DNA of 38,234 nt, taken from Candidatus Latescibacterota bacterium. GTDB taxonomy: Bacteria > Latescibacterota > UBA2968 > GCA-2709665. Every line of letters begins with the position of its first letter. The stretch's first letter is position 1. This document shows, piece by piece, positions 7,155 through 36,200 of this stretch. Below the pieces are notes generated by a model that was not told the origin of the DNA, made no database searches, and saw only the letters and a program-made list of their open reading frames with translations. The stretch is taken from the NCBI GenBank assembly GCA_963662665.2, contig CAXXJS010000048.1, positions 1-38,234 of the forward strand, read 5' to 3'. The position numbers and the translations under genes are program-made.

Positions 7155-7213
7155 TCGATCCGCCTTCATGCCGGTTTGCCGCACGTCTGTCCGGCGCCTC
7201 ATATCCAATTCCC

Positions 7214-8935: not shown

Positions 8936-9042
8936 CTCCTCCCACATTCGCCGCGTGCCATCACCACCCGGATCAGAAATGAAAGGCGGACGATCCAGGA
9001 GACCGGCCGCCATTCAATCAAGGCATTCCAGAAAGACTGCTT

Positions 9043-11088: not shown

Positions 11089-11116
11089 TGTCGAACTATC
11101 CGGTAAGGGGGTGTTC

Positions 11117-12430
11117 TCAATCCATGAACAGGTAACGGGCGACAAAAATCACCGCCAGCAGGTCCACCAGGGGACTCACTTCCTCTCCACGTCCTCCCAG
11201 CCTCTTCACAATGGGAAACGCCACAAACCCCATCGCAAGACCGTCCGAGATACTGAAAGTCAGCGGCATGGCGATCATCGTCAAAAAGGCCGGCAACGCG
11301 TCGGTGACGTCGTTCCACTTGACGTTAACCACCGATGCCATCATCAGCACGCCCACCACGATCAGCGCGGGCGCAGTTGCGAAAGGCGGAATGGCCGCCA
11401 TCAACGGCGTGAAGAAGAGCGCCAGCAGAAACATGGCACCCGTCACCACACTGGCGAAGCCGGTGCGCGCTCCGGCCGAAACGCCCGCCGCGCTTTCTAT
11501 ATAGGTCGTTACGGTCGACGTCCCGAAGATCGAACCGAACATCGTGCCCAGCGAATCGGCCAACAGCGCCCGGTTGGCTCGCGGCAGCCGGCCGCGCTTA
11601 TTGAGAAATCCCGCTCTCCCCGAAACGCCGACCAGCGTTCCCATCGTGTCGAACATGTCCACAAACAAAAACACAAAGACCACGCCGATCAGACCGACGT
11701 CGAACGCCGCCGCCAAATTCACCGCCGCGACGCCGAACAACCGCTCCGGCCACGCCGGCAGACTGAAGAAACCCTGGGGAGTCGCGGTCATACCCGTCAT
11801 CATACCCAGAACCGCCACACCCAACATCCCCAGCAATATGGCTCCCTTGACACCTCTTACCAACATCACCCCTGTGCACAGCACGCCCAGAAGCGTAAGA
11901 CCCGCCGGGCCACTCCTGATGTCGCCCAGTGCGATCAGGGTTGCCGAATTTCCTGCTACAATTCCGGCGTTTTTTAATCCAATAAAGGCAATAAACAACC
12001 CGATGCCGCATGCCGTCGCCTGTTTTATCGTATCGGGCACCGCGTTAATCAGGGCTTCCCTTACTCGCATCAGCGTCAGCAGCGTGAATAGTATACCGGA
12101 CGCAAGAACCACACCCAGTGCCAGATCCCAACGCACGCCCATCCCAAGTACCACCGAATACGTAAAAAAGGCATTCAGTCCCATTCCCGGCGCCAGGGCA
12201 AACGGATAATTCGCGACGATGCCCATAATCAACGTCGAAAGGGCGGCTGAAACGCAGGTCGCGAACAACAGCTCGCCAAACAGATCCTTACCCAGGGCTT
12301 CCGCCAACATACCAGGATTCACGGCCACTATATAGGCCATCGTTACGAACGTAGTGAGCCCTCCGATCACCTCCGTACGGTAGGTTGCACCCTTCTCGTC
12401 AAAACGAAAATACCTCGCAATCGCCGACAT
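11117..12430 (-). CDS. NCS2/AzgA-like nucleobase (purine) permease
   Basis: GLTTFVTMAYI, APGMGLNAFF, GIGLFIAFIG, DMFDTMGT, YIESAAGV-GARTG; multiple TM helices; GGAGAG SD. Confidence 0.92.
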   Translation of the reverse strand: MSAIARYFRFDEKGATYRTEVIGGLTTFVTMAYIVAVNPGMLAEALGKDLFGELLFATCVSAALSTLIMGIVANYPFALAPGMGLNAFFTYSVVLGMGVRWDLALGVVLASGILFTLLTLMRVREALINAVPDTIKQATACGIGLFIAFIGLKNAGIVAGNSATLIALGDIRSGPAGLTLLGVLCTGVMLVRGVKGAILLGMLGVAVLGMMTGMTATPQGFFSLPAWPERLFGVAAVNLAAAFDVGLIGVVFVFLFVDMFDTMGTLVGVSGRAGFLNKRGRLPRANRALLADSLGTMFGSIFGTSTVTTYIESAAGVSAGARTGFASVVTGAMFLLALFFTPLMAAIPPFATAPALIVVGVLMMASVVNVKWNDVTDALPAFLTMIAMPLTFSISDGLAMGFVAFPIVKRLGGRGEEVSPLVDLLAVIFVARYLFMD

Positions 12431-12716
12431 ATGACTCTCCAATCGGGAGTACGTGATGTTAAGTGAAGTTCAGCGATTCGCCATCCTCCCGCCCCGAAGC
12501 AGTCCCGGAATCCGTCGGTGTTTCCAGGTCATTCTACCCTTGTGTTATTGCCTTAATCGTTGTTTCCCGCTTCAGATTTCATCGTCCGGGCAGTCGGCTT
12601 TACGCTTGATTTCGTATGGAACTTGCATACATTTACGTCTGTCGGCGATCCACCGAACCGCTTGTTCAACGGACTGTTATGGACTGACGATTTTGTTCAA
12701 GCCATGGAGCCCAGGG

Positions 12717-16003: not shown

Positions 16004-16141
16004 CATGTGGAATGACAAAGTGCGGGCGGCGCGCTCAACCCCGAAGCAGTGCGGGGCGCCTATTCCGATCACTGCCGGTTGCCCCAATGCTGCCATCACA
16101 TCCTTATGGTTTGGGTCTATGCCGTGTTACCTGGAGCCCGT

Positions 16142-16732
16142 ATGGGTGAAGATCTGGATCTGGTCAGACGCTGCCAGGAGGGAGATCATCAGGCCTATCG
16201 CGTCCTGGTAGAACGTTACGAAGGGCGCCTCTACAACCTTGCCTGTTCAATTCTGGGAGACCCGGAGGCCGCCAGGGATGCCGCCCAGACAGCCTTTATT
16301 CGAGCATACCACGCCCTCCCCAAATTCCGCCGGGAGTCGGGGTTCTACACGTGGCTCTATAAAATCGCGGTCAATGTATGTCTCAACGCGGCACAGAAGG
16401 AGAAGCGCCGTCGAGATTCAACCTCGCTCGACACCCTTCTGGAATCCGGACACTTCTCGTCCGAACACCTCTGGGAATTCCGAACCCCCGCCGGAGATTT
16501 CGAGCGGCTGCAACTCCGGGAAACCATACACGAAATCCTCAATCAACTCTCGCCCGATCATCGGCTGGTTATCGTCCTGAAAGACATAGAAGGACTGTCG
16601 CAGGAAGAGATTTCTGAAACACTGAATTGTTCTGTCGGGACGGTCAAATCTCGTCTCTCTCGGGCTCGCGCACGTCTCGCTGTTCTTCTGCGGCCCGTAT
16701 ACGCCGAGTGGAAAGAGGGGACAGCGCCATGA
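16142..16732 (+). CDS. ECF RNA polymerase sigma factor (RpoE-like)
   Basis: Region 2 DAAQTAF...FYTWLYKIAVN; region 4 EGLSQEEISETLNCSVGTVKSRLSRAR. Confidence 0.93.
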   Translation: MGEDLDLVRRCQEGDHQAYRVLVERYEGRLYNLACSILGDPEAARDAAQTAFIRAYHALPKFRRESGFYTWLYKIAVNVCLNAAQKEKRRRDSTSLDTLLESGHFSSEHLWEFRTPAGDFERLQLRETIHEILNQLSPDHRLVIVLKDIEGLSQEEISETLNCSVGTVKSRLSRARARLAVLLRPVYAEWKEGTAP

Positions 16733-21410: not shown

Positions 21411-21492
21411 ATCGTCTCGGCGCACTTCCGTCAATGAATTCTAATATATGGTAACTTCAAGGTCGGGTCACAAAAAAAAAGGAGATCGGTCG

Positions 21493-21837
21493 ATGGAGGT
21501 TAACACCGAACGGGACAATGGCACCTTGATCGCGAAGGCTGAAGGTCGGGTCGACGGGTCCAATGCCCGTGAGTTCGAGGAAGCGCTCGACTCCGCAATC
21601 ACCGAGCACGAAGACGGTCAAGCCGTGATTGTGGATTTTGAAGGGCTTTCCTATATAAGCAGTGCGGGGCTTCGGGTCATCCTGCTTACCGCCAGGACGC
21701 TTCGAAAACAGGATAAGGAATTCGTGGTCTGCTCGCTATCGGATCCAATCAGAGAGGTCTTCGAGATCAGCGGATTCGATAAGATTATACCGGTTTACGC
21801 CTCCAGATCCGAAGCGCTGGCAGCGGTCGGAGGATAG
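21493..21837 (+). CDS. STAS-domain anti-sigma factor antagonist (RsbV/SpoIIAA-like)
   Basis: GRVD, phospho-acceptor motif YISSAGLRV, FEISGF; AGGAG SD. Confidence 0.92.
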   Translation: MEVNTERDNGTLIAKAEGRVDGSNAREFEEALDSAITEHEDGQAVIVDFEGLSYISSAGLRVILLTARTLRKQDKEFVVCSLSDPIREVFEISGFDKIIPVYASRSEALAAVGG

Positions 21838-22043
21838 CAGACGGTTGGTCCGGGAATGCTTCACGGAAGCGTAATGCTTTTCGCTGAAGAAGCGCCACGG
21901 GTGGAAATGACACCGTAGCCACGCCGGGTCCTCTGAACGATCATTCAGGTCATCGGCATTTTGAATGGACGGCGTGGCGGCCGCGTTATCTCATGGAACC
22001 GGACGGTTCCCCCTGAATCTCCCGAGAAACTGAGAGACCGACC

Positions 22044-22602
22044 ATGAACGAAGACCTGCTGCCGATCGGGTTGCTCATCGTCGTAGCCAAGCTCTTGGAG
22101 CGCCTCCTCGACAGGGTTGGCATGAGTTCGATCGTCGCCTGCACGACGGCGGGGATCCTGCTCGTACCCATCGCCGGAATTGTCGAGCCGACTGGCCAGC
22201 TTCAGATCTTCCTTGGCATTGGCGTATTCATCCTCTTCTTCCTTGTCGGACTCGACGATATCGACATCCCCCGCTTCGCAGCAACCATCCGGGGGCGTTT
22301 TTTTATGCCGCAATACTGTCAGTTGTGATCTCCATGGTTGCGGCCATGGTGGTCACATCAGACTTGTTTGGGGTCGCCTTTGCCCTGGGACTCCATTGAC
22401 AGGATACGCTGGCGCTCGCCGGCATCCTGTCAATGTCAAGCCTTGGGCTTGTGGCAAAGGTACTCGCAGACACCGGTCCTGAAAAAGGATACGCATGAGT
22501 TCCTTGGTACTATAACCGGTCCACGACGTCGTCGACCTCGTCCTCCTGATGGATGAAATCACGGACGAGTTGAAGGAGTTGGACGCAGAAAAGATTACGT
22601 AA
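22044..22602 (+). pseudogene. Decayed cation:proton antiporter (CPA2-like) with C-terminal CBS remnant
   Basis: TM N-terminus (LFFLVGLD); frameshift near 22305; in-frame TGA at 22397; SSLGLVAKVLAD joined directly to CBS-like PVLKKDTHEFLGTIT; second frameshift into HDVVDLVLL...stop at 22600-22602. Confidence 0.72.
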
Positions 22603-22712
22603 CCCCACTTTTTTTGTGCCGCTATCGGGGTAGCGTCCGGCTTCGACTCTTATGCGCGCCTTTTTCGGATTCAATAGTTCAGCAATACAACTTTTCGTGG
22701 GGTATTTTCGAA

Positions 22713-23882
22713 ATGTCTGCACTTCCATACAAGATCCTGGTCGTGGACGACGAACCCGACCTCGAACCGCTTATGATGCAGCGTATGCGGCGGCCAATTC
22801 GCAGAGGCCGTTACACCTTTGTGTTTGCGCGTAACGGTATCGAGGCCCTCGAGCGACTGAATAAAGACGACACCATCGACATGGTGCTCTCCGACATCAA
22901 CATGCCCCAGATGGACGGCCTTACGCTACTCGAGCAGATACCCAAGGTAGACCCGAACATCCGTTCCGTAATTATTTCGGCGTACGGCGACATGAAAAAC
23001 ATCCGGATTGCGATGAACCGGGGCGCGTTCGACTTCGTCACCAAGCCCATCGACTTCTCGGACCTTCAGGTGACCATCGATCGCACGATGCGTCATCTCA
23101 TCGAGTGGCGGGAGGCGCTTGAATCGCGCGACAAACTGATCGCGTTGCAGAACGAACTCGACGTTGCCAGCAAGATGCAGCAGTCGATTCTGCCCACACG
23201 GTTTCCCGAAAACCCCACCTATCAGGCATTCGGGAGCATGGAACCCGCTCGCAACGTCGGAGGCGACTTCTTCGATATCATCCGGCTTGAAGATGGACGC
23301 ATAGGCATCGCAATCGCCGACGTCTCGGACAAGGGTGTGCCCGCTGCGCTCTTCATGATGTCAAGCAGGACGGTACTTCGGGGAGCGGCAATCGGGACCG
23401 TCAATCCAGGCGAGGTCCTTTTCGAAGTCAACAACGCACTTTATGAGAACAACGAAGCCGCGATGTTCGTCACCGTCTTCTACGCGGTCTTCGATCCCGC
23501 CAATCGTCAGTTCGTGTACGCCAACGGAGGGCACAATTCGCCGCTCATCGTCAACGCGGACGGACATGCGACCATGCTGCCGCTGACGGGCGGCGTTGCT
23601 CTCGCAATGTTGCCTGACATCGAATACAGATACAATTCGGTCACCCTGGCACCCGGCGATACGGTTGTCCTTTATACGGACGGTGTCACCGAAGCCATCA
23701 ACGACGTGGAGGAAGAATTCGGGATGGGACGCCTGCAAAACGTCTTCGCGGGCGCACCCCCACAGGACGCCCACGAAGCCAACGGCGCGGTCTTTCAGGC
23801 CGTGAAGGGATTTGTTGGCGACACTCCGCAGTTCGACGATATAACCTGTGTAACGTTCCGGTACAGGGGGGCGGAAGCGTGA
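22713..23882 (+). CDS. Receiver domain-PP2C/SpoIIE phosphatase (RsbU-like)
   Basis: REC: ILVVDD, SDINMP, SAYG, TKP. PP2C: VGGDFFD, ADVSDKG, NGGH, YTDGVTEA, DDIT. Confidence 0.93.
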   Translation: MSALPYKILVVDDEPDLEPLMMQRMRRPIRRGRYTFVFARNGIEALERLNKDDTIDMVLSDINMPQMDGLTLLEQIPKVDPNIRSVIISAYGDMKNIRIAMNRGAFDFVTKPIDFSDLQVTIDRTMRHLIEWREALESRDKLIALQNELDVASKMQQSILPTRFPENPTYQAFGSMEPARNVGGDFFDIIRLEDGRIGIAIADVSDKGVPAALFMMSSRTVLRGAAIGTVNPGEVLFEVNNALYENNEAAMFVTVFYAVFDPANRQFVYANGGHNSPLIVNADGHATMLPLTGGVALAMLPDIEYRYNSVTLAPGDTVVLYTDGVTEAINDVEEEFGMGRLQNVFAGAPPQDAHEANGAVFQAVKGFVGDTPQFDDITCVTFRYRGAEA

Positions 23883-24298
23883 GCGCAAGACAAACCTTTC
23901 GCATCGGGGCCGATCTCGACGAACTGCGACGTGTCGCCGCTGCCGCCGAAGAACTGGGGATGCGGGAAGATTGGTCACCCGTGCTGGTACATCAGATCGA
24001 CCTCGCCATCGAGGAACTCGGCAATAACATTGTCCGCCATGGTCTCGACGGCGGCCCCGGCGAGATTGAGATCACCCTGACCTCCGACGACGATTCGATC
24101 ACCCTCGAGATGGTTGACGACGGCCGGCCCTTCAACCCCCTGAAAGACGCCCCTAAGCCCGATGTCGAAGCGGCGCTCGAAGATCGGCCAATTGGAGGAC
24201 TCGGCATTCATCTGGTGCTGACAATGATGGACGAGATGCACTACCGGCGGGAGAACGAGCGGAACCACCTCACGCTGTTAAAGCGGAGAACCCCATGA
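23879..24298 (+). CDS. RsbW-like anti-sigma factor Ser/Thr kinase (HATPase)
   Basis: LAIEELGNNIVRHG, DDGRPFNP, GGLGIHLV; GTGA overlap with the upstream gene. Confidence 0.9.
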   Translation: MSARQTFRIGADLDELRRVAAAAEELGMREDWSPVLVHQIDLAIEELGNNIVRHGLDGGPGEIEITLTSDDDSITLEMVDDGRPFNPLKDAPKPDVEAALEDRPIGGLGIHLVLTMMDEMHYRRENERNHLTLLKRRTP

Positions 24299-25476
24299 GA
24301 TCGACGATTTGCCGCGGGGTGCGGCTGTTTGCCGCAGGGATTGCGCTTACGTCCAGCCTGGAAGGCAGCGAATTCGAGAACGGCGTCTCCGACGAGCGCA
24401 TTCTTTTCGGTCAGTCCGCCGCCTTTACAGGACCCGCCGCGCAACTCGGCACCGACATGAAACGCGGCATCGAAGCCGCGTTTCATGAAATCAACCGGAG
24501 AGGGGGCGTCCACGGCCGACGGTTGGAACTCGTTTCCCGGGATGACGCGTACGAGCCGGAGGCCGCCATTGCAAACACCCTCTACCTCATCGATGATGCG
24601 AAGGTGTTCGCGCTCATCGGCGCCGTGGGTACGCCCACCTCACGTTCAGCCACCCCGGTCGCCGCGGAATCCAATATTCCGTATATCGCCCCGTTTACTG
24701 GCGCGGCGTTCCTTCGTGACCCGAAATGGAACAATGTGATCAACCTGAGGGCGTCATACAACCAGGAGACGGAGGAAATGGTCGCGCGTCTGACCGGCGA
24801 TCTCGGTATCAAGCGTATCGCCGTCCTTTACCAGGACGATTCCTTCGGCAGAGCCGGATACCACGGCGCGCGGCGAGCACTCGAACGGCGCGAAATGGAG
24901 GCAGTGGCCGTGGGGTTGTATCCGCGCAATACAACGGCAGTGAAAACGGCATTGCTCGACCTGCGCATGGCATCTCCCGACGCGGTGATTCTCATTGGCG
25001 CGTATGGTCCGGTTGCCACATTTATCGCGTGGGCGCGGCACATCGGTTGGGACCCGGTATTCATAACGATTTCTTTCGTGGGCAGCAATGCGCTCGCCAG
25101 GCAGTTGGGCCCCGAGGGAGCGGGAGTTTACGTCACTCAGGTCGTGCCGTTTCCAGACGACGACTATTTCCCTGTCGCATCGGCCTATCGCCGGGCACTC
25201 GCGGCCTTCGATCCCGGTGCGGCTCCGGGGTTCGTATCCTTCGAAGGGTACCTGGCCGGTCGCCTGGCCATAGCCGCACTCCAACGCTGTGGCCAGGACG
25301 TAGAACGGGCCTCTTTCCTCAACAGCCTTCGCAGTACCCAAATTGTCGAGATTGACGGATTTAAACTGCAATACGGCAGCAATGACAATCAGGGGTCGGA
25401 TGCCGTGTTCCTGACCATGATAGGACGTGACGGCCGCTACTATCCAATCGATACGCTCCAGGAAGCGGGGCCGTGA
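24295..25476 (+). CDS. Type I periplasmic solute-binding protein (LivJ/Peripla_BP_6-like)
   Basis: GQSAAFTGPAA, INRRGGVHGRRLEL..RDDAYEP, RASY, DDSFG, FEGY; overlaps both neighbours by 4 nt. Confidence 0.88.
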   Translation: MRSTICRGVRLFAAGIALTSSLEGSEFENGVSDERILFGQSAAFTGPAAQLGTDMKRGIEAAFHEINRRGGVHGRRLELVSRDDAYEPEAAIANTLYLIDDAKVFALIGAVGTPTSRSATPVAAESNIPYIAPFTGAAFLRDPKWNNVINLRASYNQETEEMVARLTGDLGIKRIAVLYQDDSFGRAGYHGARRALERREMEAVAVGLYPRNTTAVKTALLDLRMASPDAVILIGAYGPVATFIAWARHIGWDPVFITISFVGSNALARQLGPEGAGVYVTQVVPFPDDDYFPVASAYRRALAAFDPGAAPGFVSFEGYLAGRLAIAALQRCGQDVERASFLNSLRSTQIVEIDGFKLQYGSNDNQGSDAVFLTMIGRDGRYYPIDTLQEAGP

Positions 25477-27671
25477 TTGGCACACTGAAACAGCTGCTCA
25501 AAGGGCGCTTCCGCATCGCCACACAGCTCTATCTGGGAATCGGTGGCGCGGTTGCCATCACCATGGTCGCCAGCCTGGTCGGGTGGTTCTCATTCGATCT
25601 CGTCGGCGATATCCAGAACCGCGTGAACGAGGGCAGCGTCCCGGAAATGGCCGCAGCGTTTGGAGTCGCCCAACAGAGCGGCGCCCTGGTCGCCGCGGCG
25701 CCCCGTCTGACTTCGGCCGCCACAGTGGGTGATTTCGTTCGCGTCAAGGCGGATATCGGCGCCGAGCGCAGGGCCTTCGAATCCCAGTTGGCAGCCCTGA
25801 TGCAAAGAAACACCAGGCAGGAAGACGAGGAACGCTTCAGCCGAATACACAGCTATGCCGCCGCGCTGATGTCCAACATCGAAGAGATTGAGCGGGAGGT
25901 CGCCGAGTTGTTCGAAGTAAATGCGCGCAGCGAAGCGTTGCGCGCGGAACTGTCCATTCTCCGGTCGAAATTGTTCGGCATGCTCATTCCGGCCATCGAC
26001 GACCAACTGTTCTATGCAATGACCGGCTACCGCACAATCGGCCAGCCGCCCGTGTCCCGCGAGCGGCACTTTTCGAACGAAGAATTCGATCGGTACCGCC
26101 ACCTGGCGGATCTGAAGGCCGATGCAACCATCGCGACACAGCTCCTGTCGAGTTCATTCAACCTGTCCGATGCCCTTCTGCTGGAGCCGCTACGAGAGCG
26201 CTTCGAGGCGGCTGCCGGGCGCATCGAACGAAGCCTGTCGGCACTGGGTACATCACCGTGGCGCGACCAGATCGCTCCGCACCTGAACTGGCTCTTCGAG
26301 CTGGGTCTGGGCGAAAAGGGCGGGTTTGACCTTATCGTTCGCGAGTTCGAACTCACCGACCGGCAGCGAAACCTTCTCCAGGACAACCTTAGGCTCGAAA
26401 TCAAACTCGGTGCGGAAGTAGAGGGTCTCGTCGGCGCAGCCCGAGAACGCACGCGAGAAGCCACTCTGGCATCCACTCAGGCAATCGGGACCGGCCGCAG
26501 CGTTTTGCTGGGACTGAATGTGGTTAGCATCAGCGGCGCCGTACTCATCGCGTGGCTTTTTGTAGGCCGGGTACTGTTGCGCCGGCTCGAACGCCTGTCG
26601 GACAGGATGCGCGCCATGGCGGATGGGGACCTTGAAGCCAAGGTCGACATCAGCGGGCACGATGAGGTCGCCGATATGGCGGCGGCCCTGGAAGTTTTCC
26701 GACGGCATGCCCTCGAAGTCCAACGCCTTAACCTCGTCGAAAAGCTGGCCGAGGAGTTGCGCGAAAAAAACGAACAACTGGAAGCCGTGCTGGAGGACCT
26801 GCGACGGGCGCAAGACCAGATCGTGATGCGCGAAAAACTGGCGGCGCTCGGCGAACTGACCGCGGGGGTCGCCCACGAAATCAAGAACCCTCTGAACTTT
26901 GTCAAGAATTTCTCCGAGGTCTCCCAGGAACTTCTGGAGGAACTTGGGGAAGAACTCGAGGACACGCTCAGCGAACAGGGCGCGGAACTCGACGAAGAAC
27001 AGCGCGAACTCGTCCAGGAAATCTGTCAGGACCTCACCGACAACCTCTCGCGCATCCGGGAACACGGCGAACGAGCCAACCGCATCGTCCAGGACATGCT
27101 GTCGATGGGCCGTGGTTCCGCCGAGCGACAGGCCACGAATATCAACAACCTTCTCGACGAACACGCCAGACTTGCCTTCCACAGCGCTAGGGCGAGCGAT
27201 CCTGATTTCCAACTCGACATCCAACAGGATCTGGACCCGTCCGCGGGCGAGGTCGAGGTGGTGTCGCAGGACATGGGCCGCGTGTTCTTGAACATGGTAA
27301 CTAACGCCTGCCACGCGACCGATGAAAGGCGCCGCGGCGATGAACAGTCGAACAACAAAGCGCCCTACATGCCTACGCTCTGGTTGACGACCCGACGTGG
27401 TCCGGAACAGTTCGAGATACGTATCAAGGATAACGGAAACGGAATTCCACCCGACGTCGTCGACAAAATATTCAACCCGTTTTTCACGACCAAGCCCACC
27501 GATCAGGGTACAGGCCTGGGGCTCGCCCTGTCGAACGATATCGTGCGAGAGCACGGAGGCAGCATCCGGGTCGAAACCGAACCCGGCGAATTTACGGAAA
27601 TGATTGTTGAAATACCCCTGGAAGGCCCCGCATTGGTGCCTGAGGAGTCCACCGATGAAGATTCGTCCTGA
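25473..27671 (+). CDS. Membrane sensor histidine kinase (large helical, TorS-like periplasmic domain, HAMP, HisKA, HATPase)
   Basis: Two TM helices; HAMP (MADGDL...DEVADMA); H-box VAHEIKNPLN; N-box NMVTNA; DNGNGI; FNPFFTTK; GTGLGL. Confidence 0.92.
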   Translation: MIGTLKQLLKGRFRIATQLYLGIGGAVAITMVASLVGWFSFDLVGDIQNRVNEGSVPEMAAAFGVAQQSGALVAAAPRLTSAATVGDFVRVKADIGAERRAFESQLAALMQRNTRQEDEERFSRIHSYAAALMSNIEEIEREVAELFEVNARSEALRAELSILRSKLFGMLIPAIDDQLFYAMTGYRTIGQPPVSRERHFSNEEFDRYRHLADLKADATIATQLLSSSFNLSDALLLEPLRERFEAAAGRIERSLSALGTSPWRDQIAPHLNWLFELGLGEKGGFDLIVREFELTDRQRNLLQDNLRLEIKLGAEVEGLVGAARERTREATLASTQAIGTGRSVLLGLNVVSISGAVLIAWLFVGRVLLRRLERLSDRMRAMADGDLEAKVDISGHDEVADMAAALEVFRRHALEVQRLNLVEKLAEELREKNEQLEAVLEDLRRAQDQIVMREKLAALGELTAGVAHEIKNPLNFVKNFSEVSQELLEELGEELEDTLSEQGAELDEEQRELVQEICQDLTDNLSRIREHGERANRIVQDMLSMGRGSAERQATNINNLLDEHARLAFHSARASDPDFQLDIQQDLDPSAGEVEVVSQDMGRVFLNMVTNACHATDERRRGDEQSNNKAPYMPTLWLTTRRGPEQFEIRIKDNGNGIPPDVVDKIFNPFFTTKPTDQGTGLGLALSNDIVREHGGSIRVETEPGEFTEMIVEIPLEGPALVPEESTDEDSS

Positions 27672-27870: not shown

Positions 27871-29391
27871 ATGCCGTTGAGTTTACGCAATATGCTGGTG
27901 TTGGCGTTCGCCGGATGCCTGCCCTGGGGCTGCGGGGGCGAACGTGCGGTTGCGCCTTCGACATCGAAGGCAGAGAAATCGTCGGAGGAACAGCCGCTGG
28001 GTAAACTGGCTGTCGGAGAGAACGCGACGCGGACCGTTGTGGTGGCAACTGTGCGGCAGGACGGCGCCGCGTTGGGTGGCGTCGCCGTCGCATTCGCCCG
28101 TTCGGTTTCCGGACAGGCGCCGAATTTCGCGTGGACCGACACGACCGATGCGTATGGTCGAGCGCGCGTGGATATTGCCGTCGACCGGGGCGGCGGCTAC
28201 TATACTGCCCGCGCGGCGCGCGGCATCAGCCAGTTCGATGTCTGGTCGAGCATTCCGATCAACGGAGGATATAGAGTATCGGTAGACCTGTCCATTGGCG
28301 GGAAAGCCCGGGTGACCGGCACGTCCATACTGGCCTCGGGGCGTCTTCCGGCAAAGATTCAGATTGGCGTCGTCATTCCACTCACGGGTGACGGCATGTC
28401 CGTTGGCCGGTACGTAAAAAACGGAATGGAACTCGCGCAAGAAGAGGTCAACCTTCATGAACTCGATTCTTCAACGTTAAACTTCATCGTTGAAGACAGC
28501 GAAAGCCGCGCGGACGTGGCTGTAACTGCCTTCGAAAAGCTGATTCACGAAGACAAGGTTTCGGTTATTCTAGGGCCTGGCTACTCCTCCTCAGCTGCCG
28601 CGGCTTTTCCGATTGCCCAGCAAAACAACGTGGTGGCGTTCAGCCCCACGGCGGCGGCGGCCGGACTGGGGGCGATTGGCGACTTCGTGTTCAGGGTTCC
28701 GGCGCCTGTGAGCCGGATCGCGCAAAGCACACTTGGAATTGCAAAAACGAAACTGTATTTAGACAGGGTTGCCGTGATATACGACAGTACGGACGTTTTT
28801 TCCCAGAGTGGTTACGAGGAAACCGAAAAGGCACTTCGTGCATTGGGCGTGGAGACGCTTACAGCCGAGGCGTTCGCAACCGGACAAACCGACTTTACCG
28901 GCGAACTGGGCCGTATAATCGAATTGAAACCCGATGTGATTCTCGTCTGGTCCCGGCCCGCGCATCGGGTCGTGATTCCCGTGCAGGGACGCGGGCTTGG
29001 TATTCCTTTCGAAATACCTTTCCTCGTTTTCGGCTTTGCTTCAAGCCAGATAGAACAAGCGGGTCCGGCAGCGGAAGGGTTGATAACGGGGACCTTCTGG
29101 TCTCGTTCAATTGAGACGCCGGAGAATCGGTCCTTTATCGGCAATTACCGTACCAGATTCGGCGAGGATCCCGATCTGTTCGCGGCAGAGGGATATGTGT
29201 GTGTGCGCATTCTTGCGGCCGCAATCATCAAGGCGGGCTCAACGACGTCGGCGTCCGTCAGGGATGCGCTGGCTACAATCGATATGCAAACCGTTGTCGG
29301 ACAGTTCGCCTTCGACCGGAATGGCGACCCGACTTATCCAGCCGTCCTGCAGGTGGTCAGGAACGGCAGATTCGAAACCCTGGGGAATTGA
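27871..29391 (+). CDS. Lipoprotein: uncharacterised N-terminal beta domain fused to a LivJ-like solute-binding domain
   Basis: Signal with Cys (AGC/WGC); ~112-aa domain shared with 19940..20914; then IQIGVVIPLTG, GPGYSS, FVFR, FAFDRNGD. Confidence 0.8.
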   Translation: MPLSLRNMLVLAFAGCLPWGCGGERAVAPSTSKAEKSSEEQPLGKLAVGENATRTVVVATVRQDGAALGGVAVAFARSVSGQAPNFAWTDTTDAYGRARVDIAVDRGGGYYTARAARGISQFDVWSSIPINGGYRVSVDLSIGGKARVTGTSILASGRLPAKIQIGVVIPLTGDGMSVGRYVKNGMELAQEEVNLHELDSSTLNFIVEDSESRADVAVTAFEKLIHEDKVSVILGPGYSSSAAAAFPIAQQNNVVAFSPTAAAAGLGAIGDFVFRVPAPVSRIAQSTLGIAKTKLYLDRVAVIYDSTDVFSQSGYEETEKALRALGVETLTAEAFATGQTDFTGELGRIIELKPDVILVWSRPAHRVVIPVQGRGLGIPFEIPFLVFGFASSQIEQAGPAAEGLITGTFWSRSIETPENRSFIGNYRTRFGEDPDLFAAEGYVCVRILAAAIIKAGSTTSASVRDALATIDMQTVVGQFAFDRNGDPTYPAVLQVVRNGRFETLGN

Positions 29392-29480: not shown

Positions 29481-30914
29481 ATGAATTTCGATTCTTACGA
29501 CCTCAATCCATCCATTTACGACGAGATGTTCCTCTCGGATGGCACACCCAGAGAACATTGTCAGCTCCTTTTCGAGGCGCTGAGCGACCTCTCGCCGGAG
29601 GAACTTTCAAGCATCCAGGAGCGCGTAACCCGTTCGTTTTCGAATGAGGGTATCACCTTTACCGTTTACGGCGATGACGAGGCTACTGAACGAATCATTC
29701 CGGTCGACTGCCTGCCTAGAATTTTATCGGGAGCCGAGTGGCGCCAGATCGTCCAGGGCCTCACACAGCGCCTGGCTGCCATGAACCGCTTTCTTCAGGA
29801 CATTTACAACGACGCACGCATTATAGGAGACGGCGTCATTCCGGCCGAAATGGTCAAGGGCTGTCCGCAGTACCGGGTTGAAATGTGTGGCGTCTCTCCG
29901 CCCCATGGCGCCTGGGTTTCAGTCTGCGGCACCGACCTCGTGCGCACCACCGACGGCTTTCTCGTACTTGAGGACAATCTGCGCGTTCCGTCGGGTGTTT
30001 CCTATATGGTTGCGAATCGTAAAGCGGTGAAAGCGAGTCTGCGCCGACTTTACAGAAGTTCACGTGTAGAGGACGTGGAACACTACGGCAGGTTGCTGCG
30101 CGAAACCCTTTCAGAAGTCGCGCCAGGGGAGCGGACCGACCCGTGCATTGTGCTGCTCACACCGGGCGTTTACAACTCGGCCTTTTACGAACACTTGTTT
30201 CTGGCCCGAGAAATCGGCGCGGCCCTCGTCGAGGGTCGGGATCTCCTCGTGAACGATGGATTTGTCTATATGCGCACAACCACGGGTCTCCGGCGCGTCG
30301 ACGTGATTTACAGACGCGTCGACGACGACTTTTTGGATCCCCTGGTCTTTCGCGCGGATTCCCTGCTGGGCGTTCCCGGGTTACTGCACGCCTACAAACT
30401 TGGCAATGTGACCCTCGTAAACGCGCCCGGAACAGGTGTGGCCGACGACAAGAGCGTCTATGCCTACGTTCCGGACATGATTCGCTACTACCTGGGCGAA
30501 GAGCCCATTCTGGCCAGCGTCGAGACCTACCTGTGCCGCAGGCCGGAACACCTCGAGTACACGCTCGACAACCTGGAGAATCTGATCGTAAAGCGGGTCG
30601 GCGAGTCAGGCGGTTACGGCATGCTGGTCGGTCCCCACGCCACACCGGAGGAACGGGAGAAATACGTCAAGCAGTTGCGCGCCAACCCGGCTGACTTCAT
30701 CTCCCAGCCCGTTCTGCCGCTGTCGCGTGCGCCGTGTCTTGTCGACGACCGGATTGAGCCGCGTCACGTAGACCTGCGTCCATTCGTGTTGCATGGGCGT
30801 GAGACGCGGATCGTTCCCGGGGCATTCTGCCGTGTCGCCTTGCGCCGTGGCAACCTGGTGGTCAATTCCAGTCAGGGCGGTGGCGGCAAAGACCTCTGGG
30901 TTCTGGAAAACTGA
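29481..30914 (+). CDS. Circularly permuted type 2 ATP-grasp protein (DUF404-like peptide ligase)
   Basis: GITFTVYG, LEDNLRVPSGVSY, NSAFYEH, IYRRVDDDFLDP, NAPGTGVADDK, SGGYG, VNSSQGGGGKD. Confidence 0.93.
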   Translation: MNFDSYDLNPSIYDEMFLSDGTPREHCQLLFEALSDLSPEELSSIQERVTRSFSNEGITFTVYGDDEATERIIPVDCLPRILSGAEWRQIVQGLTQRLAAMNRFLQDIYNDARIIGDGVIPAEMVKGCPQYRVEMCGVSPPHGAWVSVCGTDLVRTTDGFLVLEDNLRVPSGVSYMVANRKAVKASLRRLYRSSRVEDVEHYGRLLRETLSEVAPGERTDPCIVLLTPGVYNSAFYEHLFLAREIGAALVEGRDLLVNDGFVYMRTTTGLRRVDVIYRRVDDDFLDPLVFRADSLLGVPGLLHAYKLGNVTLVNAPGTGVADDKSVYAYVPDMIRYYLGEEPILASVETYLCRRPEHLEYTLDNLENLIVKRVGESGGYGMLVGPHATPEEREKYVKQLRANPADFISQPVLPLSRAPCLVDDRIEPRHVDLRPFVLHGRETRIVPGAFCRVALRRGNLVVNSSQGGGGKDLWVLEN

Positions 30915-30988
30915 GCAATCGCATTCAAAACGTCTGTCAGGTATAACACGTATCTCACCGTTGTGGAAAAATCACGAAAGGAGAGGGT

Positions 30989-32374
30989 ATGAGAGGTTTC
31001 ACGAAAGTACCGATCCACAAGCGCCTCGGCGGTTCCCCGTGGAGAACGGCCCTGCTATTGATCGGCTGCCTGCTCTGCGGGACCACCGCGGCTTACGCGG
31101 CGGTCGACCAGGAGACTATGTTCGTCTTCAATACGTTCGCGTTCCTGATCTGGGGCGCGCTGATCATGTGGATGTGTGCCGGGTTCACAATGCTCGAGTC
31201 GGGTTCGGTTCGCAGCAAGAACGCCGGGATGATCTGCATGAAGAACATAGGCCTCTACTCGATAGCCGGTCTCGCCTATTACTTCATCGGTTACAATCTG
31301 ATGTATACGGACGTGGGGAAGTTCATCGGCTCCTTTACGCTCCTTTACGGTCCATCTGCGGCCGACCTCGCCCTCGTCGCTGGTCAGGAAACCGCGAAGG
31401 CCAAGGTTATCGCAAACAAATATTCCACAATGTCCGACTGGTTCTTCCAGATGGTCTTTGTGGCGACGGCCGCCTCCATTGTCTCCGGCGCGCTGGCGGA
31501 GCGGGTCAAGATGTGGTCCTTCTTTCTGTTCACGCTGGCCCTGACGGCTGTTATCTACCCCGTTGTGGGCGCGTGGACCTGGGGCGGCGGGTGGTTGAGT
31601 GCTATGGGATTCAAGGATTTCGCCGGATCGACCATAGTTCACAGCACCGGTGGATGGGCGGCGCTTGCGGGTGCGCTGGTCGTCGGTCCGCGATTGGGAA
31701 AATTCCGAAGGGATGGCACCATTAAGGCAACGCCACCGTCCAATATCCTCGCCGTTACGCTCGGCGTATTCATCCTGTGGTTTGGCTGGCTCGGCTTCAA
31801 CGGCGGGTCGCAGTTGGCGCTGGGGAGCGCCGCCGATGCGGTGGCTATGAGTCATGTTCTTGTCAACACGAATCTTGCGGCGTCGGCCGGCGTGGTTGTG
31901 GCTCTCATCGTCTCCAAGCCTATCCTGGGGCGCATGGACCTTTTCGCCAGTCTGAACGGAGCGATTGCCGGGCTGGTGTCAATTACAGCCGGCCCCGACA
32001 TCGTCCAGCACTATTGGGCAGTGGTTATCGGCGGCGTGGGCGCCATCCTTTGTACGGCCGGAATCAGGCTACTGGAAAGGTTGAAAATCGACGACGTGGT
32101 CGGCGCGGTTCCCGCCCACCTCTTCGCCGGTATCTGGGGAACGCTGGCTGTAACCATTGCCGCGGGCGGAAATTTTGGCGTTCAACTCCTGGGTTGCGTT
32201 GCGGTTGGCGTGTTCGTATTCTCGGTTTCGTGGGTGCTGTGGCGATTGTTGGCCGCGACCCTGAGCGTCCGCGTGTCCAACAAAGTCGAGCGGATGGGGC
32301 AGGACGTCGGAGAACTCGGAATGGAGGCATATCCCGAATTTGTCCTCACACCGGAAGAAGCAGATGAGGATTGA
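30989..32374 (+). CDS. amtB: Ammonium transporter (Amt family)
   Basis: AGFTMLESG, FQMVF, SGALAER, WGGGWL, DFAGSTIVH, GWLGFNGGS, DDVVGAVPAH. Twin-His, Phe gate and Trp/Ser site appear intact; signal peptide; AAGGAG SD. Confidence 0.95.
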   Translation: MRGFTKVPIHKRLGGSPWRTALLLIGCLLCGTTAAYAAVDQETMFVFNTFAFLIWGALIMWMCAGFTMLESGSVRSKNAGMICMKNIGLYSIAGLAYYFIGYNLMYTDVGKFIGSFTLLYGPSAADLALVAGQETAKAKVIANKYSTMSDWFFQMVFVATAASIVSGALAERVKMWSFFLFTLALTAVIYPVVGAWTWGGGWLSAMGFKDFAGSTIVHSTGGWAALAGALVVGPRLGKFRRDGTIKATPPSNILAVTLGVFILWFGWLGFNGGSQLALGSAADAVAMSHVLVNTNLAASAGVVVALIVSKPILGRMDLFASLNGAIAGLVSITAGPDIVQHYWAVVIGGVGAILCTAGIRLLERLKIDDVVGAVPAHLFAGIWGTLAVTIAAGGNFGVQLLGCVAVGVFVFSVSWVLWRLLAATLSVRVSNKVERMGQDVGELGMEAYPEFVLTPEEADED

Positions 32375-33357
32375 TGACAACGAATCCTGGTAGTCCCAGA
32401 CTTCTCTCCCGCAGTGCGCAGGGCCTTTATTGGATGGGCCGCTACCTTGAACGGGCGGAACACCTCTGTCGACTTTTGCGATTTCAGGTGGAAGCGTTGG
32501 TGGATCGGCCGATCCGGGAGATCTATTTTGGCTGGAGTCGAATCTACCTGAGCCTGAATCGCCGTCCGCCCGGCGGCAGCATCACGATGGCAGGGAACGA
32601 CGATTTTACGCTGGCCGATTCCTACACGTTGGCCGACGATCTCACTTTCGAGCGCTCAAATCCCGATTCCGTATGGAATTGTTTCTCGCTCGGCCGTGAG
32701 AATGCACGGCAGATGCGCCACTGCATCAGCGGGGAGATGTGGACCTGTTTGAACCTCGCTTATCTGCGGCTCCAGAAGCTAAGCATCCGGGACATCTGGC
32801 GGGCTTCCCCCGAGAGCTTTTATGCTGAAACGGCAGGTGATATAAACACGTTTGCCGGCGTGGCGGAAGCAACGATGTACCGCGACGAAGGATGGCATTT
32901 CGCGCGACTCGGGCGTTGTATGGAACGTGCCCAATGTTCGGCTTCGTTATTCCTTTCTCAGCTCTCCGTGGACAAACTCATGGACGAGTCATCCGACGCG
33001 GACTGGACGAACCTCTTGCACGTTTGCCAGGCGTTTGACGCTTACGTCCGTAATTACAGTGTCGACGTCCAGCCGCATCGGATCCTCGATCTTCTCGTTA
33101 CCGACCCTCTGCTACACGGCTCTTTATGCTACTCGCTCGACGCGGTGGCCGCGGAACTCGACGCCATCGGTACCGGGTCCGACGAACATTCCAGTGCAGT
33201 AGCCCTGCGCCTGGCCAGGCGTATGTGCGCGCTGATCCATTACGATTGGCCCGATCGCGAAGACCATGAGGCCATTCTCGGAGACCTCCTGGGCTACTGC
33301 CGGGAATTGAATGATCTCGTTACCGCCGCCTATATCGATTACGCCGTCGCCGAATGA
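32374..33357 (+). CDS. Alpha-E domain protein (DUF403)
   Basis: LLSR...LYWMGRYLERAE, RENAR, GRCMERA. ATG 32374 overlaps the amt stop (TGATG). Confidence 0.9.
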   Translation: MTTNPGSPRLLSRSAQGLYWMGRYLERAEHLCRLLRFQVEALVDRPIREIYFGWSRIYLSLNRRPPGGSITMAGNDDFTLADSYTLADDLTFERSNPDSVWNCFSLGRENARQMRHCISGEMWTCLNLAYLRLQKLSIRDIWRASPESFYAETAGDINTFAGVAEATMYRDEGWHFARLGRCMERAQCSASLFLSQLSVDKLMDESSDADWTNLLHVCQAFDAYVRNYSVDVQPHRILDLLVTDPLLHGSLCYSLDAVAAELDAIGTGSDEHSSAVALRLARRMCALIHYDWPDREDHEAILGDLLGYCRELNDLVTAAYIDYAVAE

Positions 33358-34262
33358 TACCCGGGTGTGATGATACCTTGGCCGGAACGATTCAGTACGA
33401 AATCAGGCACGTCTCACGTTACCATTACGCATTCCCCGCCCGGGAGTGCGTCATGCTGCTTTGCCTGAAACCGCTTGAAAACAACGGTCAGCAGTTGGTT
33501 CGTTTCGAAATCGAAACGAATCCAAAGGGCTCCCTGAGCGCTGAAACGGATCCATTCGGCAACGTGCGGCACGTTCTCAGCGTTCACCCGGAACATGAAA
33601 CTCTGGAGATTGCGGCTCAATCCACTGTAAGTGTGGCTCCCTTAACCCCGCTTCCACCTGTTCTCGGAGCCGACGCGTGGACGGAGATCGACGCGTGGAG
33701 GGACTCATTTCGACACTGGGATCTGATGCATCCCAGCGCGATGGCGGCTCCATCGCACGCGCTCGCCGATTTCACGAGAAAAAACGGCATTTTACGTGGG
33801 AATGACCCGCTCACGGACCTGACCCGGCTATCCTGTACTTTGAACGACGTATTTCAATACTCACCAGGAAGCACATCCGTCGCGTCTCCAATTGAAGAGA
33901 TTCTGGACACCGGCGAGGGAGTCTGCCAGGACTACGCTCACGTCATGATCGCGGTCGCCCGCTCATGGGGCGTTCCCGCCCGATACGTCTCGGGCTATCT
34001 TTACGTTTCCGGTTCTCCCGACGGGCGGGCCTGGAGCAATGCCACCCACGCCTGGGTGGAATGTCTGCTACCGGAACTCGGCTGGGTCGGATTCGACCCC
34101 ACCAACCGAAGTCTTACCGACGAACGACACGTTCGGATCGCCACAGGACGCGATTATCTGGACATTTCTCCGACACGTGGCGTCCGTCGGGGCGGCGGCG
34201 AAACGCGGCTCGAAGTCGATGTTCGGATGCGTCTCCGGACGGATCCGCAAATCCGCGCTTGA
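33354..34262 (+). CDS. Transglutaminase-like protein (Bact_transglu_N plus core)
   Basis: IRHVSRYHY, DPFGN; catalytic triad GVCQDYAH / HAWVE / GFDPTN; GRDY.D; ATGA overlap. Confidence 0.92.
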   Translation: MIPGCDDTLAGTIQYEIRHVSRYHYAFPARECVMLLCLKPLENNGQQLVRFEIETNPKGSLSAETDPFGNVRHVLSVHPEHETLEIAAQSTVSVAPLTPLPPVLGADAWTEIDAWRDSFRHWDLMHPSAMAAPSHALADFTRKNGILRGNDPLTDLTRLSCTLNDVFQYSPGSTSVASPIEEILDTGEGVCQDYAHVMIAVARSWGVPARYVSGYLYVSGSPDGRAWSNATHAWVECLLPELGWVGFDPTNRSLTDERHVRIATGRDYLDISPTRGVRRGGGETRLEVDVRMRLRTDPQIRA

Positions 34263-34287
34263 CAGAACTCTTCTTCCTCTATATCTT
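34259..34287 (+). promoter_or_regulatory. sigma70-type promoter for riboswitch-thiC
   Basis: TTGACA-N17-TATCTT; the -35 overlaps the upstream TGA stop. Confidence 0.65.
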
Positions 34288-34298
34288 GTAAATTGAAA

Positions 34299-36200
<1,902 letters not shown>

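Follow-up and report, generated by a model that had tools for sequence, protein, structure and literature searches.

Why does the gene for an ammonium transporter lie inside the enzyme trio of the Anbu operon? Iyer et al. 2009 reportedly also described this trio of CP-ATP-grasp, Alpha-E and transglutaminase, and we know of no substrate or biochemical product found for it in any organism since its definition in 2008–2009. The window, the whole 38,234-nt stretch of Candidatus Latescibacterota DNA analyzed here, carried four intact, co-directional genes at 29481–34262, as identified from the list of open reading frames (ORFs) and Pfam. The first gene (29481..30914, + strand) encodes a circularly permuted (CP) ATP-grasp amidoligase of the COG2308 type (477 aa; CP_ATPgrasp_2 1.4e-155, profile 1-374/374). 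A 74-nt spacer (30915..30988, +), with a Shine-Dalgarno (SD) GGAG at 30980-30983, 5 nt before the ATG, separates it from amt (30989..32374, +), which encodes a 461-aa ammonium transporter (Amt; Ammonium_transp 1.1e-97, profile 3-399/399). These are followed by an Alpha-E gene of the COG2307 type, starting at 32371 (TTG) or 32374 (ATG) and ending at 33357 (+; Alpha-E 4e-62, profile 1-293/294), and by a gene for a transglutaminase-like cysteine enzyme of the COG1305 type (33354..34262, +; 302 aa; Bact_transglu_N and Transglut_core). The last letter of the amt stop codon TGA (32372-32374) is also the first of the alpha-E ATG at 32374 (TGATG), and the transglutaminase ATG overlaps the alpha-E stop codon (ATGA). 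The original prediction had read this gene order, both overlaps and intact catalytic and transport motifs from the DNA, and all of these held.

The ATP-grasp belongs to the CP-ATP-grasp family (PF14403/PF04174) and matched PDB 3n6x at 1.7e-162. In alpha-E (PF04168), the ER motif residues E184 and R185 were invariant in 44 sequences. The AF2 model of alpha-E was all-helical (pLDDT 88.9, pTM 0.90). Foldseek returned 0 PDB matches to this model at E ≤ 0.001, and a profile search of PDB sequences gave no match. VIA-align returned generic helical matches only, the best of which (Z 10.2, rmsd 5.9 over 255 residues) fell under the level trusted for helical bundles. The transglutaminase-like protein contains GVCQDY, HAWVE and FDPTN motifs, which we take to be its Cys-His-Asp triad by family pattern, not by structural alignment. 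Purifying selection acts on all four genes, with dN/dS of 0.07–0.10 for the ATP-grasp, 0.18–0.22 for the transglutaminase and values within 0.07–0.22 for the whole set.

The Anbu operon, as outlined in Valas & Bourne 2008 (PMC3235984), consists of COG2308 CP-ATP-grasp, COG2307 Alpha-E and COG1305 transglutaminase-like proteins, often with Anbu. The window encodes the same three full-length families in the same relative order, and the nitrogen-limitation link known from Proteobacteria fits its neighboring genes. Unlike in the Anbu operon, amt lies between the ATP-grasp gene and alpha-E, with translational coupling to the latter, and the adjacency or fusion of these two genes, which had been cited as usual, is not seen here. 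The absence of an NTN/Anbu peptidase from the locus was confirmed, with no Proteasome-family gene among the 31 window ORFs scanned with Pfam; PF00227 matches in the genome were found only on another contig (C17), and the peptidase is frequent, not universal, in the family. The two systems also differ in their apparent control, which is of the NtrC type in Proteobacteria, whereas the window has an upstream cassette of partner-switching, binding-protein and kinase genes.

Co-transcription is probable for all genes between 22614 and 34262, since they are co-directional and tightly spaced. A scan for sigma-70 promoters and terminators gave no candidate site between the genes of the cluster, the 74-nt spacer included, and conservation of that spacer among relatives was confined to the SD region. 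Downstream, thiC has its own TPP riboswitch (Rfam) and a promoter-like site; therefore, the unit would end at 34262. The thiC riboswitch was the only Rfam match, no glutamine riboswitch being found, and a sigma-54 consensus scan gave 22 matches versus 15 expected, with 0 on the + strand upstream of the cluster.

The upstream sensor cassette (21448-27671) begins with a gene for a STAS-domain protein of the RsbV-like anti-anti-sigma type (21448..21837, +; STAS 2.2e-19), which holds the same place in relatives. Next is a receiver fused to a PP2C (SpoIIE) phosphatase (22614..23882, +; SpoIIE 5.3e-51, Response_reg 2.1e-23), whose orthologs, at 59–90% identity, adjoin Amt in other genomes. An RsbW-like kinase of the serine kinase/anti-sigma type (23879..24298, +; HATPase_c_2 7.7e-29) overlaps both of its neighbors by 4 nt and completes a partner-switching set of STAS, PP2C and HATPase_c_2 kinase encoded together. 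A periplasmic binding protein (24295..25476, +; Peripla_BP_6 1.7e-60), the presumed ligand sensor for the membrane histidine kinase that follows it (25473..27671, +; TorS-like sensor region, HAMP, HisKA and HATPase_c by Pfam), stays beside this kinase in relatives. The second periplasmic binding protein (27871..29391, +; 506 aa; Peripla_BP_6 1.4e-55) is, judging from gene content, a recent addition to the locus; it is present in locus L062, in pieces in L135 and absent from genomes G007 and G015. The domain set and order, along with the 4-nt gene overlaps, are those of known REC-PP2C/RsbW/STAS systems and TorT/TorS-like pairs, from which the window differs in that the conserved downstream genes are Amt and/or the trio. 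These are candidate outputs of the cassette or co-regulated cargo. The cassette itself has no sigma factor or other output gene; an ECF sigma gene lies at 16049-16732, 5 kb upstream, with no sign of a link. Among other neighbors, hydantoinase and xanthine/uracil permease were recurrent nitrogen-scavenging functions.

The proposed survey of gene neighborhoods for an intervening amt showed that the order is not confined to the window's contig. It was intact in 12 of 14 genomes of the same genus and decayed in the other two, present in one genome of a sister genus (G015) and partly present in another (G019). A larger second phylum had the Amt clade in 21 of 401 sampled genomes, in eight of which Amt lay directly beside alpha-E, with six loci intact in the window's order, one with a broken alpha-E and one arranged alphaE-Amt; the window's order was represented there by 6–7 species. 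A MAG contig titled Chloroflexota (L054) and the locus L072, titled Acidobacteriota, also carried it. Two further orders were observed, Amt-ATPgrasp-alphaE-TGase in six genomes from another family of the window's phylum, and ATPgrasp-alphaE-Amt. On metagenome contigs centered on alpha-E, an Amt gene lay within 6 kb in 14 of 41 cases (directly upstream of alpha-E, as in the window's order, in seven, directly downstream in three and elsewhere in four). These counts include related genomes that are not independent and correspond to approximately five to eight independent lineages, not dozens. The arrangement exceeds chance, because it recurs in many genomes and dN/dS is low for all four genes.

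The linkage was not universal. The trio is widespread without a linked Amt, and orthologous operons of relatives have ATP-grasp adjoining alpha-E (L034, L131 and L125-L130) or fused to it (L038); the gene maps of GC-rich relative loci were made by tblastn. Among the 48 genomes of the window's phylum with this type of alpha-E, judged from gene coordinates, the Amt ortholog was adjacent in 22, far away or on a different contig in 25 and absent in one, which indicates that the linkage is not obligatory. The trio was found decayed beside an intact Amt in four genomes (G013, G101, G016 and G308) and possibly in two more (G011 and G103). Only remnants were left in G013, and in G011 the ATP-grasp, alpha-E and transglutaminase genes were each in two pieces. 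Amt therefore does not need the trio. The cassette usually adjoins the Amt or trio genes in relatives. In a sister family, the orthologous kinase was followed directly by the orthologous Amt, with no trio nearby, at all 13 of 13 loci. In relatives, the sensor cassette accompanies Amt at least as constantly as the trio does. In phylogenetic trees, each of the two main orders had its own Amt clade, whereas their ATP-grasps fell into a single orthologous group; consequently, the linkage was made or remade more than once. A one-step insertion of amt into an ancestral contiguous trio was considered and dropped; G016 and G101 retain remnants, and the upstream kinase and Amt genes are syntenic with those of the sister family, both of which imply a more complex history.

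Transglutaminase chemistry intrinsically yields ammonia, and ammonia is a plausible nucleophile for an amidoligase. A part played by ammonia in the chemistry of this trio, as product or nucleophile, is put forward as a hypothesis in PMC6376114, which also reports trio induction by nitrogen limitation. In other reports, the trio depends on NtrC/sigma-54 in B. cenocepacia (PMC5491218) and is the most upregulated operon in nitrogen-limited P. putida (PMC3235984, note added in proof; PMC5666114); these induction reports concern Proteobacteria. In marine metagenomes, the abundance of trio domains co-varies with that of urea-metabolism domains, as stated in PMC3597751. The published induction and the conserved linkage, in three orders and at least two phyla, support the original prediction that Amt inside the module ties the trio to nitrogen. 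Its first specific model would have ammonium uptake supply reversible peptide tagging or the storage and release of nitrogen. It had allowed that the arrangement might already be described; the literature searched contained no such paper and none linking an ammonium transporter gene to the trio, although subscription papers outside the search may.

We propose, as a reading with about an even chance of being correct, that the window is one gene-order variant of a recurrent, horizontally shared nitrogen-limitation locus that couples ammonium uptake or recapture to the amide chemistry of the trio. The locus would comprise three modules, namely the sensor cassette, the AMT1-like transporter and the orphan Anbu-operon trio. 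Under nitrogen shortage, Amt would import or recapture ammonium, and the trio would carry out ATP-dependent amide chemistry with ammonia as a substrate or product. The ATP-grasp could form an acyl-phosphate that is attacked by an amine or NH3, and the Cys-His-Asp enzyme could turn over glutamine-type amides with release of NH3. Ammonium would then be the chemical link between Amt and the trio, and the coupling direct. A simpler possibility, which we rate as clearly less probable though worth serious consideration, is that the cassette, Amt and trio are separate nitrogen-stress functions that share a regulator and are transferred together, ammonium being neither substrate nor product of the trio. 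The modules are indeed separable and found in all possible orders. Some loci have the cassette and Amt but no trio, others the cassette and trio but no Amt (L149, L150 and L155). The trio decays beside intact Amt, and whole blocks are 60–80% identical between phyla. In all three orders, however, Amt always directly adjoins a trio gene, with a short gap or an overlap, which is closer than co-regulation would require, and the place of ammonia in the chemistry hypothesized in PMC6376114 also weighs against this alternative. Neutral rearrangement, in which amt landed by chance between ATP-grasp and alpha-E in one lineage and was inherited without function, is disfavored and seems very improbable. 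A single event is possible within the window's family, and the ATP-grasp tree is compatible with one origin, but this order is also found on divergent metagenome contigs and in the second phylum, the same Amt clade adjoins the same trio in two more arrangements, and the Amt clades of the main orders are distinct.

The Amt protein itself raises the possibility of signaling. Its Pfam domain extends to residue 448 of 461, leaving 13 residues, and its N-terminus resembles a signal peptide. By sequence, it belongs to the AMT1/receptor-like subfamily, and its best solved relatives were Sd-Amt1 (8qj3, 1.5e-68) and Ks-Amt5 (6eu6, 8e-54), far ahead of the transporter Af-Amt1 (2.6e-38). Amt could thus be an ammonium receptor in place of an assimilatory transporter, one that senses external ammonium, informs the trio or the partner-switching cascade by non-covalent means and replaces the GlnK-AmtB axis missing from this genus, which we consider unlikely. 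The more specific version, a stand-alone receptor of the Sd-Amt1/Ks-Amt5 lineage that lost its fused transducer and signals non-covalently to an alpha-E/ATP-grasp complex or to the cascade, appears somewhat less likely still. Receptor-site residues were counted by hand from the Sd-Amt1/Ks-Amt5 alignment against the residues listed in PMC11152129. As in the two receptors (PMC11152129, PMC5764959), the N1 site has its Glu, Asn and two Ser/Thr ligands (E70, N86, S163 and S166) and the cytoplasmic exit its narrowing Asn (N323), all invariant in 37 orthologs, and amt is embedded among signaling genes. None of 15 genomes of the genus, that of the window included, had a match to the P-II family (PF00543), nor did the window itself; the family was found in all 26 other genomes of the order. 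The window amt, like that of the glnK-amtB operon, is tightly coupled to a gene for a cytoplasmic protein, but this is not P-II, and the Amt is AMT1-like, not of the AmtB type. Against a receptor role, the protein has no fused HAMP-cyclase or kinase module and fails the full N1/N2 signature, Q-x6-E-x15-N-x2-D-[FT]-x54-60-T-x2-[ST] (PMC11152129). The corresponding residues are C63, E70, N86, L89, Y90, S163 and S166, so that Cys63 stands in for the signature Gln and Leu89 for Asp, the N2 ligand, and the spacer is longer, at 72 residues. The subfamily (cluster 2 of PMC11152129) also holds proven plant AMT1 transporters. The twin-His, Phe gate and Trp/Ser recruitment site of PF00909 are all kept, the pore residues H218, H377, F157, F270, S274, D210 and the W196/W198 region (located by alignment to Sd-Amt1) being invariant in the 37 orthologs. 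This is, moreover, the sole Amt-family match in a 92%-complete genome, which argues for a transport role. Covalent modification of Amt by the trio, through ligation to or cross-linking of its cytoplasmic parts to regulate transport, had also been suggested and is the least probable explanation by our estimate. Gene adjacency and amt/alpha-E translational coupling are its only support. Between orthologs that have the trio and those that lack it, Amt is 77–80% identical over its whole length, conserved C-terminal region included, the trio is common without a linked Amt, and it decays where Amt persists.

The gain from this locus is limited in that published work had already linked the trio to nitrogen. 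The trio is nevertheless widespread, and in pseudomonads few operons respond to nitrogen starvation with stronger induction. If the stand-alone receptor reading were true, the locus would be the ammonium-sensing axis of the cell in a genus that lacks P-II, with the trio as its enzymatic output, which would tag or amidate proteins. In bacteria without P-II, the binding-protein/kinase and partner-switch cassette is a further candidate means of regulating Amt genes. For the coupled locus that we favor, the repeated joining of one Amt clade to the trio, in three orders and across phyla, narrows the search to ammonium-centered chemistry and provides a testable lead, that the orphan trio may handle ammonium under nitrogen shortage.

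Four forward-strand genes form the cluster at 29481–34262 of the window, itself an entire 38-kb contig from a host genome (G000) of 4.86 Mb and 92% completeness. They encode a circularly permuted ATP-grasp of 477 amino acids (29481–30914; CP_ATPgrasp_2, 1.4e-155 over the full profile), an Amt-family protein of 461 amino acids (30989–32374; 1.1e-97, profile positions 3–399 of 399), an alpha-E protein of 327 or 328 amino acids (32371 or 32374 to 33357; 4e-62) and a transglutaminase-like protein of 302 amino acids (33354–34262; Bact_transglu_N plus Transglut_core). The amt stop meets the alpha-E ATG in TGATG and the alpha-E stop meets the transglutaminase ATG in ATGA. The ATP-grasp and amt genes are separated by a 74-nt spacer (30915–30988), with GGAG 5 nt 5' of the amt ATG. 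The ORF coordinates, profile matches and junction sequence confirm the gene order and overlaps of the original prediction. The absence of an NTN/Anbu peptidase, also claimed there, held across the window, as no Proteasome/Anbu-family gene was found among the 31 ORFs scanned. The only PF00227 matches of G000 were two tandem Proteasome-family ORFs on its contig C17 (30006–31207), candidates for Anbu, HslV or a 20S-type protein.

All four genes showed low pairwise dN/dS when the window genes were compared with three relatives and one cross-phylum copy: 0.07–0.10 for both the ATP-grasp and Amt, 0.09–0.12 for alpha-E and 0.18–0.22 for the transglutaminase-like gene. The ATP-grasp matched the structural-genomics entry 3n6x (1.7e-162). 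The ER motif of alpha-E was kept, with E184 and R185 invariant in 44 sequences; structure comparison with a confident alpha-E model gave no informative relative. The transglutaminase-like protein contained GVCQDY, HAWVE and FDPTN, which we take, from the family pattern, to be the putative Cys-His-Asp triad. Together with the twin-His and Phe gate of Amt, these motifs and the dN/dS range of 0.07–0.22 agree with the predicted intactness of the catalytic and transport motifs.

The cluster stands at the 3' end of a longer co-directional row on the forward strand. The row opens with a STAS gene (21448–21837), followed by a receiver-PP2C phosphatase (22614–23882), an RsbW-like kinase (23879–24298), a periplasmic binding protein (24295–25476), a HAMP histidine kinase (25473–27671) and a second binding protein (27871–29391) directly before the cluster; from 22614 onwards, neighbouring genes overlap by 4 nt at the first four junctions. 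The second binding protein, a Peripla_BP_6 gene between the kinase and the ATP-grasp, has an N-terminal extension of 160 residues. Among relatives it was present at locus L062, split in two on metagenome contig L135, and absent from genomes G007 and G015. Hydantoinase/oxoprolinase A and B genes and a xanthine/uracil-family permease gene (6827–12442) are further nitrogen-scavenging neighbours of the locus, and such genes recur in distant relatives (L072, 10219–12006; L126, 15095–16960).

The downstream gene thiC is preceded by a promoter-like site of its own (34259–34287) and a TPP riboswitch (34295–34384; 75.3 bits), so the unit ends at 34262. The TTG listed as the thiC start (34383) falls within the end of the aptamer, and the true start is therefore probably further downstream. 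No terminator-like or promoter-like sites were found in the gaps of the cluster, and conservation of the ATP-grasp/amt spacer among relatives was limited to the Shine-Dalgarno region. These features and the end of the unit at 34262 make co-transcription plausible. Neither a sigma-54 site controlling the cluster nor a glutamine riboswitch was found in the window.

The ATP-grasp, alpha-E and transglutaminase trio was defined, with Anbu, as an operon and regulon in PMC3235984, where a note added in proof reports that no operon is upregulated more strongly in P. putida under nitrogen limitation (also PMC5666114). The four genes were described among the strongest NtrC/sigma-54-dependent ones in B. 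cenocepacia (PMC5491218), and abundances of these domains were reported to co-vary with those of urea-metabolism domains in marine metagenomes (PMC3597751). For Yersinia, PMC6376114 describes the ATP-grasp as releasing phosphate from ATP, reports neither Anbu activity nor a stable complex, and includes among its unconfirmed hypotheses that the transglutaminase liberates ammonia when cells starve for nitrogen. Our literature search found no paper linking an amt gene to the trio, so the arrangement is not, by this search, one already described.

Linkage was sampled in two phyla plus 121 loci. The position of amt was not unique to this contig: 12 of the 14 same-genus genomes keep the order ATP-grasp, Amt, alpha-E, transglutaminase (type B) intact, and it recurred in the sister genus (G015, and G019 at the end of a contig) and in a second phylum. 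Across 41 genomes from the order, with the window's counted in, a close Amt ortholog (74–93% identity) occurred in every one of the 14 same-genus genomes, in the sister genus, in one third-genus genome and in nearly all sister-family genomes. In genome G011, where Amt is whole, each of the three enzyme genes is in two pieces, the result of decay or else of indel errors in long reads; G013 has an intact Amt between mere remnants of the three enzymes. Across the window's phylum, this alpha-E type occurred in 48 of 168 genomes (read from coordinates), and in 22 of these 48 the Amt ortholog was within 2 kb of it. Sixteen of the linked genomes, all from the window's family, were type B; the other six, from two genera of another family, had the order Amt, ATP-grasp, alpha-E, transglutaminase (type A), with RsbW-like and STAS genes directly upstream.

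The second, larger phylum was sampled via the genome of locus L072. The Amt clade was present in 21 of its 401 sampled genomes and touched alpha-E in eight of them: six intact type B (one in two copies), one with a broken alpha-E and one with alpha-E followed by Amt (type D). In the genome of L072 and L073 (G168), the whole type B block is present twice, and a third, identical Amt copy stands alone. Type B was also found on the L054 contig, from a Chloroflexota-titled MAG; in total, it accounts for 3 of the best 80 Amt-centred loci. Of 41 metagenome contigs with a close alpha-E relative at their centre, seven have Amt directly upstream of alpha-E, three directly downstream and four more within 6 kb, several others being too short to judge.

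The ATP-grasps of type A, type B and unlinked operons form one orthologous group (~80% identity). In their tree, the type A sequences make up one starred clade beside an unlinked operon from their own family, and those of type B are paraphyletic and basal, which leaves a single origin possible. In a quick Amt tree, type A and type B Amts form separate starred or near-starred clades, with the type B Amt of the Chloroflexota-titled contig clustering with Caldilineaceae Amts; at least two changes are therefore required to account for type B on that tree. All 13 of 13 sister-family loci place the Amt ortholog immediately after the kinase ortholog, and none has a trio within 1.5 kb. Two loci of that family, L036 and L038, hold a different, larger version of the system (ATP-grasp, alpha-E, second ATP-grasp, transglutaminase) adjoining MoxR/DUF58 genes and unlinked to Amt; in L038 the second ATP-grasp is fused to a second alpha-E. 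In genome G101 an alpha-E fragment remains after Amt, and in G308 alpha-E is broken. In G016 (L029/L033) the Amt ortholog lies between ATP-grasp fragments (residues 2–89 upstream, 429–465 downstream), and an otherwise contiguous trio 280 kb away has an ATP-grasp frame-shifted near residue 425–429. This layout could be left over from a duplicated intermediate between gene orders. The remnants show repeated loss of the trio beside a kept Amt. Given these and the separate Amt clades, the linkage was made or remade more than once and often lost, which fits a useful but dispensable coupling.

Amt proteins of the clade share 65–80% identity between MAGs (loci L045–L088) titled Dehalococcoidia, Caldilineaceae, Binatia, Vicinamibacterales, Acidimicrobiales, Rhodothermales, Gammaproteobacteria, Thermoanaerobaculia, Nitrospinota and Latescibacterota. 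This is far above the identity usual between such phyla, so the clade spread horizontally. It often did so together with the upstream sensor cassette (21448–27671 in the window), which accompanies Amt in 10 of the best 80 Amt-centred loci. At L039 (genome G038) the Amt ortholog lies in a transposase-rich stretch (IS200-like, ISL3, Mutator family, integrase-core protein) adjoined by an aminoglycoside N-acetyltransferase-family gene.

The window Amt has a signal-peptide-like N-terminus and is the sole PF00909 match in the incomplete G000; relatives have one or two further, more distant Amts. Pore residues, placed via alignment to Sd-Amt1, were invariant in 37 orthologs (twin-His H218 and H377, Phe gate F157 and F270, S274, D210). 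P-II (GlnB/GlnK, PF00543) was not found in any of 15 genomes of the genus, five of them single-contig and 97–100% complete, and was present in 26 of 26 other genomes of the order, with one to four each. Glutamine synthetase genes are present in G000. The genus looks like a P-II-less lineage with Amt genes.

We read the locus as a nitrogen-limitation locus coupling Amt to the amide chemistry of the trio, and infer co-transcription and ammonium as the chemical link. Gene content, intactness, selection and recurrent tight linkage were observed directly; nitrogen induction of the trio would carry over by analogy from papers on other organisms. Under nitrogen limitation, Amt would import or recapture ammonium, the trio would perform ATP-dependent amide chemistry consuming or releasing ammonia, and expression or activity would be set by the sensor cassette. 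The main rival reading holds that these modules are co-regulated and co-transferred without sharing any chemistry. A neutral accident is disfavoured because the linkage occurs in several gene orders and several phyla, and modification of Amt by the trio is unlikely.

That Amt is a receptor is a minority reading. The closest solved structures are the ammonium receptors Sd-Amt1 (8qj3, 1.5e-68) and Ks-Amt5 (6eu6, 8.3e-54), with the assimilatory Af-Amt1 at 2.6e-38. PMC11152129 gives the receptor signature Q-x6-E-x15-N-x2-D-[FT]-x54-60-T-x2-[ST] with an exit-narrowing Asn-269, and places proven plant AMT1 transporters in the same Amt subfamily. At the corresponding positions, hand-counted on the Sd-Amt1 alignment, the window Amt has C63, E70, N86, L89, Y90, S163, S166 and N323, of which E70, N86, S163, S166 and N323 are invariant in the 37 orthologs. 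The N1-site ligands and exit Asn of the receptors are therefore kept, whereas the signature Gln and N2 Asp are replaced and the transducer domain is absent. The most fitting label for the protein is AMT1-like Amt, with a putative role as transporter and/or sensor. Coupling of Amt to the trio remains our preferred reading. The locus in the window represents a genuine variant, conserved and shared horizontally, of an orphan operon already known, and its amt linkage sharpens the long-standing question about that operon without answering it.
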